Positions 34,430 through 64,000 of a stretch of DNA of 64,000 nt are shown piece by piece (positions within the stretch are counted from its first letter, which is position 1; each line of letters starts with the position of its first letter). The DNA lies in NCBI GenBank assembly GCA_000092065.1, contig CP000593.1; one strand, given 5' to 3'. A model generated the notes under the pieces. The model had not been told where the DNA came from. It saw only the letters and a program-made list of their open reading frames with translations, and ran no database searches. Source of the stretch: Ostreococcus lucimarinus. Its lineage: Eukaryota. The position numbers were made by a program, and so were the translations under genes.

Positions 34430-35110
34430 ATGTCCGCGCGCTCTTTCGCGTCCACCGCGCGACCGCACGTCGCGGTGCGATCCAAAGCCCCGTCGCGCAC
34501 CGTCGCCGTTCGCCGCCTCGCCGCGATTCCGTGCACGGCGAGCGCGTCGTCGTCGTCCGAAGACGACGCGCGCCACGTCACCAAGCGTGGTCGTCGACCG
34601 CTCATCGTGCTCCCGCTCGCCGGCGCCGCGCTCGCGGCCTCCGCGCCGAGCGGCGACGCGAAGGCGAACGGTGAATTCGTCACCGACGCCCAGCTCGCCG
34701 TGCTCGAGCGACGGGGACCGATCGCGTTCACGGAGGATGAGTGGAAGAACAAGCTGGAACCGTTCTCGTACAAGGTGCTGCGGAAAGAGGCGACGGAGCG
34801 ACCGTTTTCGAGCGAGTTGAACTCGGAGAAACGAACTGGACGGTTCGTGTGCGCTGGGTGTGGAACGCCGCTGTTCGACTCGAAGGCGAAGTACGATTCG
34901 GGGACGGGTTGGCCGAGCTTTTACGAGCCGCTCGCGGGCGCGGTGATGGAGGTTCCGGATTACTCCATCATGTTCTTACCGCGCTCGGAGGTGCGATGCA
35001 CGGCGTGCCAAGGGCACCTTGGGCATGTGTTCGAAGATGGGCCGCCGCCAACGGGCTTGCGATACTGCATGAACGGTGCGGCGATGAAATTTGAGCCGGC
35101 GTCGGCGTAA
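34430..35110 (+). CDS. MSRB: Peptide methionine sulfoxide reductase B (SelR domain), plastid-targeted
   Basis: SelR motifs: FVCAGCGTPLFDSKAKYDSGTGWPSF...CTACQGHLGHVFEDGPPPTGLRYCMN (the CxxC...CxxC zinc site and the catalytic RYC). N-terminal S/A/R-rich presequence. Confidence 0.85.
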   Translation: MSARSFASTARPHVAVRSKAPSRTVAVRRLAAIPCTASASSSSEDDARHVTKRGRRPLIVLPLAGAALAASAPSGDAKANGEFVTDAQLAVLERRGPIAFTEDEWKNKLEPFSYKVLRKEATERPFSSELNSEKRTGRFVCAGCGTPLFDSKAKYDSGTGWPSFYEPLAGAVMEVPDYSIMFLPRSEVRCTACQGHLGHVFEDGPPPTGLRYCMNGAAMKFEPASA

Positions 35111-61431: not shown

Positions 61432-63297
61432 CTAATTGATGGCTGGCGAAAGTTGCGGGTTCGCGAACTTCGGAAGTAAAACGTCGTCGATTTGCTCCGC
61501 CGTGCCCATGTCTCTGACGAATTTCCAGAACGCGACGAAAATGCCGGGAAGTGTTCTGTATGACGAGTAAGGAATGCCCATCTTCGCCGCTTCTTCCGCG
61601 ACAATTTTCGCGATCGCGGGGTAGTGCACAAAGCAAATCGCCGGGAACAGGTGATGCTCGACTTGCAAGTTCAGACCGCCGGTGAAAAAGTTTCCAATCT
61701 TTCCACCCCAGTCAGCGCTAGTCACCAACTGCTGCACGCCCCAATCTCTTTCCCACGCCTCTCCACCGGTATCTTCAGGGAGTTTGGCCTCGGGCACGTT
61801 GTGACTCACCGCGAACGTACACGCGAGGACGACTCCTTGGCACGCCATGAAACCGACGATGCCGGCGACGACGGCGGAAGCCGCGTGGCTCATCAAAGGT
61901 GCAGCCAACAAACCGAAGTGCACAAACTTGCCGATAACTACGGTGGCAAGTTCCCAAGTGGTCGCCCCGTGGAGCTTTGCGCCTTCGGTATCGCGAGTGA
62001 ACAAACCGACGATGTCGCCGACTTGGAACGCCACCTGCAACAACGGAAAGGCCAAGAACATGTACCAGTGCTGGAAGCGGTGGTACCACGCCTTGGGACG
62101 ACGAGCGTCGAAACGCAAGAGAGGCATGGCGGTGTACACGTCTTGATCCATAGCATTGTCGTTGCAGTGAATGTGGTGGCTCACCTGGTGGTGGTATCGC
62201 CACATCAAAGACGAGCCGCCGATGAGATCGTTCGTCAAACCGAGGACGCCGTTGACGGCGGGCGACGGTGACATCGCCCCGTGATTGGCGCAATGCTGAA
62301 TCGTGAGCCCGATCCACGCACCAGCTAAGCCAAGGAGGCAACCCGAGAGAAAGCCCGGGATGGTGGCGTACACACCGTACGCAAACGCGGCGAAAGACAA
62401 AATCGTTATCGTCGCGTGGTCGCCACCCATTCTGTGTTTGTTCTTCCCTTCTTCCGGGAAAAGTTCCTCGCGAACGCGATTGCGGATGTTGTTGTACAGC
62501 GGCGAATCGTTCGGTCTCGGTGACTTCGCCACGGCGTCGACCGGGAACCCCTCGAGCTTGGGTAACATCCTGAAGCGCGCCGTCGCCACCTCTGGTCGCA
62601 AGTGATAGGATTCCATGAGCGCCGTGCAGTCGCGACCGATGGCGAGGTTCAACAACCAGTTCCCGCCCGGATGCTTCTCAAAGAACGGTCCGAGGTCGTA
62701 CGCCACGTCTCGAAACACCGTCCACTTCACCTTTTGCCACTTCTCATCGTTCCACGGATCCTCCATCCCCGGCGCCGCGACGTCCGGGCGCGGCAACCTC
62801 AGCGCCTCGCGTCTCGCCTCCAGGGACATCATCTTCTCCCCCTCCTCGCCCTCGACGCTTCTTTCGACGACCGCGGCGTTCCCTTCGCCCTCGATCGATC
62901 GCGGAACGATCGCATACCTCCCCGATCGCGCGCGCCGCGCGTCCGCGCGCACCGCGCTCGTCGTCGCGCGCGTCGTCGTCGCTCGACGGCGATAATCACA
63001 CCTCGCGCTCGACGTCGTCGTCGTCGCGAACGCGCGCGCGACGGTGCGCATGGCGGGCTCGATCGCTCGGCGCGGATTCGTGGCGTTCGGATCCGTCTCG
63101 GGCGCTTCGCGCGTTCGGGCGTTCGAGCGCTCGCTGTCCCGGACGCGCGCTGTGACGAGCCGACGCGACGACGCCGACGCGACGACGCCGCGCGCGGATC
63201 GGATCGCGTGACGTCGGTCGGGGCGCGTCGGGCGTCGAGGGACTCGTTCTCGAGTCGAGACTCGTCGATGGGATCGGTGTGGTCCGTGTGTATCCAT
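61432..63297 (-). CDS. Front-end fatty-acid desaturase with an N-terminal cytochrome b5-like domain, preceded by a long transit-peptide-like extension (alternative start at 63051)
   Basis: b5-like domain VFRDVAYDLGPFFEKHPGG. Histidine boxes HCANHGA, WRYHHQVSHHIHCN and QVEHHLFP (the Q-x-x-HH box is diagnostic of front-end desaturases). Several TM helices. The first ~150 codons are S/R/T/A-rich. Confidence 0.85.
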   Translation of the reverse strand: MDTHGPHRSHRRVSTRERVPRRPTRPDRRHAIRSARGVVASASSRRLVTARVRDSERSNARTREAPETDPNATNPRRAIEPAMRTVARAFATTTTSSARCDYRRRATTTRATTSAVRADARRARSGRYAIVPRSIEGEGNAAVVERSVEGEEGEKMMSLEARREALRLPRPDVAAPGMEDPWNDEKWQKVKWTVFRDVAYDLGPFFEKHPGGNWLLNLAIGRDCTALMESYHLRPEVATARFRMLPKLEGFPVDAVAKSPRPNDSPLYNNIRNRVREELFPEEGKNKHRMGGDHATITILSFAAFAYGVYATIPGFLSGCLLGLAGAWIGLTIQHCANHGAMSPSPAVNGVLGLTNDLIGGSSLMWRYHHQVSHHIHCNDNAMDQDVYTAMPLLRFDARRPKAWYHRFQHWYMFLAFPLLQVAFQVGDIVGLFTRDTEGAKLHGATTWELATVVIGKFVHFGLLAAPLMSHAASAVVAGIVGFMACQGVVLACTFAVSHNVPEAKLPEDTGGEAWERDWGVQQLVTSADWGGKIGNFFTGGLNLQVEHHLFPAICFVHYPAIAKIVAEEAAKMGIPYSSYRTLPGIFVAFWKFVRDMGTAEQIDDVLLPKFANPQLSPAIN

Positions 63298-64000
63298 TCA
63301 ATCGCACCATCGGTCGCATCGTCCGATCGCGACCGCTCGCGACCGCTCGCGCTCGCGCTCGAGGCGGACGCGCGGGACGCCGCGGGACGACGACGAGACG
63401 ACGATCCGACGACGCGACGACGCCCGGCACAGCGACGCGCGTCGTCGTCGTCGACGTCGTCGTCGACGAGTCGCGAGCGTCGTCGACGCGCGCGCGTCGT
63501 CGACGCGCGAACGCGACGCGCGCGCCGTCGACGCCATGGCGCTGGATAGGGCGCTCGCGACGCGCGCGCGCGCGAGCGGGGCGTCGACGTCGACGTCGAC
63601 GCGCGACGCGAGCGGACGGCGACCGGGACCCGGCGCGCGAGGACGGCCGGCGAAGGGGCGCGGACGGGGGAAGGTGCGCGGCGACCGACGCGACGCGACG
63701 CGCGCGCGACGCGCGTCGATCGGGACGGGACGGGACGTCCGAGGCGCGGTTTTCGCGCGATGGGGGGGGACGGCGACGTCTAAAACCGCGAGCGACGCGC
63801 GAGAAAGGCGCGAGTGCGACTCGATGGAATCGTGACACTGACCGACGGCGATCGCGCGCGCGCAGACGACGACGAACGCGGTTTTCGACGCCTTGAAGTT
63901 TGACCCGGACAGAGTGTCGGTGGCGTTCGACGCGAGCTCGACGCGGGTGGAACCGGAGTCTTTATTGCAGCGGCGTTACACGCTGACGCACAACGATGTG

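Follow-up and report, generated by a model that had tools for sequence, protein, structure and literature searches.

The 64,000 nucleotide (nt) stretch of Ostreococcus lucimarinus DNA analyzed here (from contig CP000593.1 of assembly GCA_000092065.1; hereafter, the window) carries on its minus strand an open reading frame (ORF) of 621 amino acids, 61432..63297, with the features of a front-end fatty acid desaturase fused to cytochrome b5. Residues 157-621 of the ORF match exactly the RefSeq entry XP_001422856.1 (P0120 in our protein set), a "predicted protein" of O. lucimarinus CCE9901. Searches against Pfam identified a Cyt-b5 domain (PF00173) at residues 191-236 (62590..62727; E=9e-9) and a membrane fatty-acid desaturase domain (FA_desaturase, PF00487) at residues 314-580 (61558..62358; E=1e-33). 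The b5 domain includes the HPGG motif (residues 209-212; 62662-62673), whose His forms, with the His of an ESYH motif, the pair of heme ligands. The three His boxes read HCANHGA (residues 335-341; 62275-62295), HHQVSHHIH (residues 369-377; 62167-62193) and QVEHH (residues 545-549; 61651-61665). Hence the ORF, the b5-like HPGG domain and the three boxes that an earlier note had picked out from the letters of the sequence are all in place, both domains being backed by Pfam, and the feature stands well above chance level. The gene is probably (we put the likelihood at about 0.82) orthologous to that of CrΔ4FAD, the plastid acyl-lipid Δ4 ("7-3") desaturase of green algae, with a 539 amino acid precursor translated from position 63051. 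CrΔ4FAD, from Chlamydomonas reinhardtii, is the best-studied form of a known chloroplast enzyme that supplies thylakoid lipids with 16:4; it was reportedly the subject of a study by Zäuner et al. in 2012.

A homologue search returned 117 relatives. The named ones include "fatty acyl delta4 desaturase" and "acyl-lipid (7-3)-desaturase", the latter being the name that annotation pipelines already give to the family; many others are chlorophyte hypothetical proteins with 50-64% identity to the window protein. One cluster of homologues holds the C. reinhardtii protein Cre01.g037700 (UniProt I2CYZ4, "Acyl-lipid (7-3)-desaturase, chloroplastic"). One publication (PMC9419350) equates Cre01.g037700 with CrΔ4FAD, a Δ4 desaturase linked to monogalactosyldiacylglycerol (MGDG), and reports that its overproduction raises 16:4(4,7,10,13). 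Pairwise alignment of the window protein with CrΔ4FAD gives 55% identity over 506 amino acids, with the b5 core common to both. The His boxes of the two proteins, QHC(A/G)NHGAMS, WRYHHQVSHHIHCND and GGLNLQ(V/I)EHHLFPAI, differ by only two conservative substitutions, and the window protein displays the family-specific form of these boxes (QHCxNHGAMS / WRYHHQVSHHIHCND / LQxEHHLFPAI), including the Gln in the third. Every His and Gln in the boxes, as well as both heme ligands (H127 and H150 in the numbering of the 539 amino acid form), is invariant across an alignment of 49 homologues.

An AlphaFold2 model of the 539 amino acid form, computed with these 49 homologues in the input, has a mean predicted local distance difference test score (pLDDT) of 83.2 and a predicted template modeling (TM) score of 0.80. 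A profile search of the PDB matched cytochrome b5 relatives only. Foldseek likewise matched cytochromes b5; for the desaturase domain, its best matches in the PDB were 8xqw_M and 8xks_K, at 16% identity and a TM-score of ~0.5. Neither the profile nor the Foldseek matches inform the assignment of function. The two chains belong to the Chlamydomonas Ycf2/Orf2971-FtsHi chloroplast import motor, a complex that seems to hold a subunit with the membrane-desaturase fold.

A neighbor-joining tree was built from 473 alignment columns with our own distance matrix and 200 bootstraps, the outgroups being one bacterial sequence and a set of uncharacterized non-green ones. The window protein lies nearest to the sequences of two other Ostreococcus lineages (100% bootstrap support). 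The three Ostreococcus sequences join Bathycoccus (86.5%) and then a Micromonas-like sequence (100%), forming a Mamiellophyceae subclade. This subclade falls inside a clade made of CrΔ4FAD, other chlorophytes and one unnamed sister sequence (100%), apart from the non-green group. The topology resembles the species tree, as orthology predicts. The earlier note had suggested a plastid-type front-end desaturase akin to the Chlamydomonas MGDG Δ4 enzyme and had proposed a phylogeny including the latter as a check: the identity to CrΔ4FAD, the boxes and the leader described below all agree with that suggestion, as does the position within the CrΔ4FAD clade in a tree sampling this family, its non-green relatives and a bacterial sequence.

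The same analysis drew attention to a 496 amino acid homologue called from a 1596-nt Logan contig (P0113). The protein is 40% identical to the window protein and falls in a 100% clade with chlorophyte Δ4FAD sequences. As called, it has no N-terminal extension; the three boxes are QHTANHGAL, WRYHHQVTHHLY and QIEHHLLPG. Should it originate from a haptophyte or a dinoflagellate, this sequence could bear on plastid Δ4 or Δ3 desaturation.

Assigning the translation start relied on a comparison of the 5′ region with that of five related Ostreococcus loci (L001-L005) from two lineages. Synteny is kept at all five, with a Staygreen gene divergent upstream and a rhodanese-like gene convergent downstream. 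The ATG at 63051 (residue M83 of the ORF, MRTVARAFATT...) is present in every one of the five loci and shares the reading frame of the desaturase in L001-L004; no in-frame ATG was found upstream of it in any of the five, and at least 139 nt free of ATG precede it in all lineages. A conserved DPW motif follows this codon at a distance divisible by 3 in the window (291 nt), in L001 and L002 (294 nt each) and in L003 and L004 (327 nt each). Identity and gap measures against L001 step sharply at 63051. Over the 246 nt on the upstream side (63052-63297), identity is 67.6% and most of the 26 gaps have lengths not divisible by 3, as compared to 90.6% DNA identity and a net length difference of 3 nt in the presequence and a gap-free 97.9% identity in the mature part. 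The GC content of the three codon positions follows the same division: flat upstream of 63051 (0.74/0.68/0.71 for positions 1/2/3, that is, with no codon periodicity) and coding-like from there on (0.61/0.66/0.85 in the presequence; 0.58/0.43/0.74 in the mature part). Furthermore, the upstream stretch is read in other frames in strain variants (P0128, P0133), and the start context is better at 63051 (GCCATG) than at 63297 (TGAATG).

Because the loci of the relatives, the indel patterns, the identity step and the codon-position GC content agree, ATG 63051 is most likely the initiation codon, yielding a 539 amino acid product from a coding sequence spanning 61432..63051 (stop codon at 61432-61434). 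The preceding 82 codons of the open frame (63052..63297) are most likely untranslated, representing either 5′ untranslated region or intergenic sequence. These findings substantiate the start at 63051, which the earlier note had listed as an alternative, and go against the presequence of ~150 residues that it favored: with the first 82 codons looking non-coding, the leader ahead of the conserved core is reduced to ~85 residues.

Two observations were set aside in reaching this assignment. In L005, the conserved ATG is 1 nt out of frame with the desaturase. This was read as an assembly indel because the same contig (ERZ10646569:contig_25543) splits the neighboring Mur-ligase/FOL3-type gene in two; both the split and the 1-nt offset in the presequence (L005:1033-2515 and L005:4281-4579) look like assembly indels. 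We thus rejected L005 as a sign that the conserved ATG can be out of frame, and regard P0133, the 635 amino acid protein called from this contig, as an artefact. Also discarded was a short contig carrying P0126, considered as a transcript that might mark the 5′ end. The contig is genomic, as it also bears the rhodanese-like neighbor, and belongs to a different Ostreococcus lineage.

Two other start sites can be weighed against ATG 63051. Translation of the full 621 amino acid ORF from ATG 63297, with a presequence of ~165 residues, is conceivable inasmuch as this ATG is in frame in this strain and no other ATG separates it from 63051; in a transcript beginning upstream of 63297, scanning ribosomes would reach it first. 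However, the codon is missing in L001-L004 and, in L005, does not share the frame of the conserved ATG. Its context is poor (T at -3), and it comes straight after a stop codon, midway through the 484-bp divergent spacer toward the Staygreen upstream ORF. Added to the low identity, the frame-breaking gaps and the lack of codon periodicity in the 246 nt from there to 63052, these features make initiation at 63297 quite unlikely. Highly improbable, in our estimate, is the possibility that the RefSeq start (M157 of the ORF; 62827..62829) is correct and that the protein is an enzyme of the endoplasmic reticulum (ER) with no presequence. XP_001422856.1 is annotated from this position, and the Micromonas pusilla model XP_003061243.1 begins, too, just before DPW. 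Yet M157 is not conserved: close relatives have Ile in its place (K-I-S for K-M-M-S in the window), one such form (P0118) being found on 285 contigs, and the stretch around it is missing from the L003/L004 lineage. In relatives that lack M157, the next in-frame Met is already inside the conserved core; therefore, the start must be upstream. The segment between 63051 and 62830 shows the GC3 periodicity of coding sequence and maintains the frame through its indels. Finally, initiation at M157 would place HPGG at residue 53, outside the range found in the green clade (see below), where every homologue that could be scored bears an extension.

With translation starting at 63051, the N-terminal extension covers ORF residues 83-167 (62797..63051). 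It comprises a putative transit peptide, residues 83-134, followed by an acidic linker. The former contains 29% Ser plus Thr, 21% Ala and 25% Arg against 4% Asp plus Glu, for a net charge of +11; thus, the S/R/T/A-rich composition pointed out in the earlier note holds for this portion. In the AlphaFold2 model, pLDDT is below 50 over residues 1-68 of the 539 amino acid form and the fold becomes confident from around residue 90. Across the Mamiellophyceae the extension is hypervariable in both length and sequence, conservation starting at PRPD...DPW. Among green-clade homologues with an exact HPGG (six sequences without it were left out of the scoring), the motif is found at residues 83-159, nearly always preceded by a positively charged segment. 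Within the sister group of non-green sequences, to which the heterotrophs Cafeteria and Paramoeba belong, HPGG is already reached at residues 23-71, the extension being very short or absent in most members. A plastid targeting sequence would be expected to show such a pattern, and we infer from it that the protein is imported into the plastid.

The above data suggest how the enzyme might operate. The first ~50-85 residues, a disordered and basic leader in which Ser, Thr, Ala and Arg abound, would direct import into the chloroplast and then be removed. The mature protein would be a membrane di-iron desaturase in which the fused b5 domain passes electrons to the center formed by the three His boxes, the donor being presumably plastidial rather than an ER b5 reductase. 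By orthology with CrΔ4FAD, the Δ4 bond would be put into 16:3(7,10,13), three carbons carboxyl-ward of Δ7, the substrate being at the sn-2 position of galactolipids and the product 16:4(4,7,10,13). Such an activity would fit the lipid profile of these algae: 16:4n-3 is the signature fatty acid of Chlorophyta (PMC8018280), and in the plastid lipids of Ostreococcus tauri, which are 18:X/16:X species, 16:4 is confined to sn-2.

A number of points weigh against this picture. In O. tauri, unlike in Chlamydomonas, 16:4 also occurs in digalactosyldiacylglycerol (DGDG) and in extraplastidic lipids; therefore, the description of the Chlamydomonas enzyme as "MGDG-specific" is not simply transferable. 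The functionally characterized Ostreococcus desaturases of a 2026 preprint omit the plastid Δ4 enzyme. The neighbor-joining tree leaves out the characterized ER Δ4, Δ5 and Δ6 and sphingolipid Δ8 desaturases as outgroups; named, characterized outgroups were sought through P0114, the most distant eukaryotic match, and the best 120 of its 4873 matches were nearly all unnamed. A leader this rich in Arg might also belong to a mitochondrial protein, and PredAlgo fails to discriminate in O. tauri, where it also predicts a chloroplast transit peptide (cTP) for Δ4 and Δ5 desaturases treated as ER enzymes.

As for function, the combination of a b5 domain with three His boxes is generic and would also fit an extraplastidic front-end desaturase of other specificity (C22 Δ4 desaturation for docosahexaenoic acid (DHA), sphingolipid Δ8 or Δ5/Δ6), and Joint Genome Institute (JGI) labels read merely "delta-4 desaturase". 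Nonetheless, an identity of this kind is most improbable. In O. lucimarinus, the C22 Δ4 desaturase that has been characterized is XP_001415743.1 (Ahmann et al. 2011; PMC3877907), which, compared by accession, is separate from the window protein, XP_001422856.1. Degraeve-Guilbault et al. (2020) described seven O. tauri front-end desaturases, including "CEG00114.1 (D4p, Ot13.2)", placed beside CrΔ4FAD ("[Cr]4p") in their tree. The accessions of O. tauri 4ER, D5, Ot13.1, Ot05, Ot10 and Ot15 are all distinct from that of D4p, and the candidate clustering with acyl-lipid Δ6/Δ8 and sphingolipid Δ8 desaturases is one of these, Ot15 (CEG01739.1). The grouping with sphingolipid Δ8 enzymes that the earlier note had named as a refutation finds no backing in this comparison by accession. 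Box signatures speak in the same sense, since those of the plastid Δ6 enzymes (see below) and of the acyl-CoA Δ6 desaturase Ot13.1 (QHEGGHSSL, WNQMHNKHH and QVIHHLFP) differ from those of the window protein. The 55% identity to CrΔ4FAD likewise speaks against an extraplastidic enzyme. Another possibility, very unlikely in our judgment, is that of a plastid desaturase with a dual function, counting three carbons from the first double bond and so producing, on galactolipids, both 16:4Δ4 from 16:3Δ7 and 18:5Δ3 from 18:4Δ6. The idea finds some ground in the UniProt name of the Chlamydomonas enzyme, "(7-3)-desaturase", as that rule would lead to Δ3 on a Δ6 substrate. Moreover, 18:5n-3 arises in Emiliania huxleyi via plastid Δ3 desaturation on galactolipids, and a Δ3 front-end desaturase is known from no organism (PMC11418110); within Chlorophyta, 18:5n-3 is limited to some early-emerging classes, Mamiellophyceae included (PMC8018280). 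On the other hand, Bathycoccus is devoid of 18:5 (PMC8018280), yet it has an orthologue 79% identical to the window protein, and the authors of that study prefer a plastid Δ6 desaturase or the Δ5 desaturase for the 18:5 step. No sequence feature separating 18:5 producers from non-producers was found. One might nevertheless speculate that the plastid Δ4 desaturase of Mamiellophyceae offers a cheap candidate for the Δ3 step to 18:5n-3.

Returning to the assignment as a plastid acyl-lipid Δ4 desaturase, earlier publications already cover the enzyme family, its localization to the plastid in Chlamydomonas and a counterpart in O. tauri, and transcripts of the O. tauri "plastidial Δ4-Des" have been measured (Degraeve-Guilbault et al. 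2021, PMC8018280). The gene is in this sense an ordinary one and the idea advanced in the earlier note is not new. Modestly new are the finding that the public O. lucimarinus model is devoid of the targeting leader and the size of the latter, ~85 rather than ~150 residues. A related case is that of the 470 amino acid protein XP_003061243.1 of M. pusilla CCMP1545 (P0352). The model begins with MPGAADPW, right at the conserved core, and probably lacks a 5′ exon and the leader, like the O. lucimarinus RefSeq model. Localization predictions or expression constructs made from XP_001422856.1 or XP_003061243.1 would mislead.

Upstream from the desaturase gene, on the plus strand, lies the Staygreen (SGR) homologue (63536-64000), whose conserved domain begins at ~63850 and continues past the end of the window. 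Ahead of this domain, and in the same frame, is a 99-codon ORF with a conserved ATG at 63536 (MALDRALATRARASG...). Two stop codons part the ORF from the domain (...DSMES-stop-H-stop-PTAIARAQ...), and L001 is arranged alike. A small intron near the 5′ end may explain the break, as may an assembly error at the N-terminus. The sole tRNA of the window is a tRNA-Pro (CGG) on the minus strand at 34512-34587.

Comparison with known desaturases helps in placing the O. lucimarinus enzyme. The plastid Δ6 desaturases of O. tauri, Ot05 and Ot10, are, like the proposed enzyme, b5-fused, front-end and plastid-located, and act on galactolipids. However, they form a separate clade, and their box consensus (xHDYxHGRx, WWSxKHNxHH and QLEHHFLP) is at variance with the boxes of the window protein (QHCANHGAM, WRYHHQVSHHIH and QVEHHLFP). 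The C22 enzyme XP_001415743.1, encoded in the same genome, and Ost809D4 are also front-end "Δ4" desaturases with a fused b5 domain; they differ in being products of another gene, as judged by accession (459 amino acids in RCC809), in converting C22 polyunsaturated fatty acids to DHA and in being treated as ER enzymes. The O. tauri protein D4p (CEG00114.1), for which a predicted cTP has been reported, is presumed from its description in the papers to be the direct orthologue; relative to it, the RefSeq model of O. lucimarinus is cut short at the N-terminus. With CrΔ4FAD the O. lucimarinus protein shares the order of its parts (N-terminal extension, b5 domain and three-His-box desaturase) and membership in one chlorophyte clade. 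The O. lucimarinus extension is longer (HPGG at residue 127 versus 100) and unrelated in sequence, and a 7-residue insertion ahead of the conserved RDWGVQQ in the Chlamydomonas protein is absent. In keeping with the wider distribution of 16:4 in its Ostreococcus host, the head-group specificity of the enzyme may be broader than that of its Chlamydomonas counterpart.

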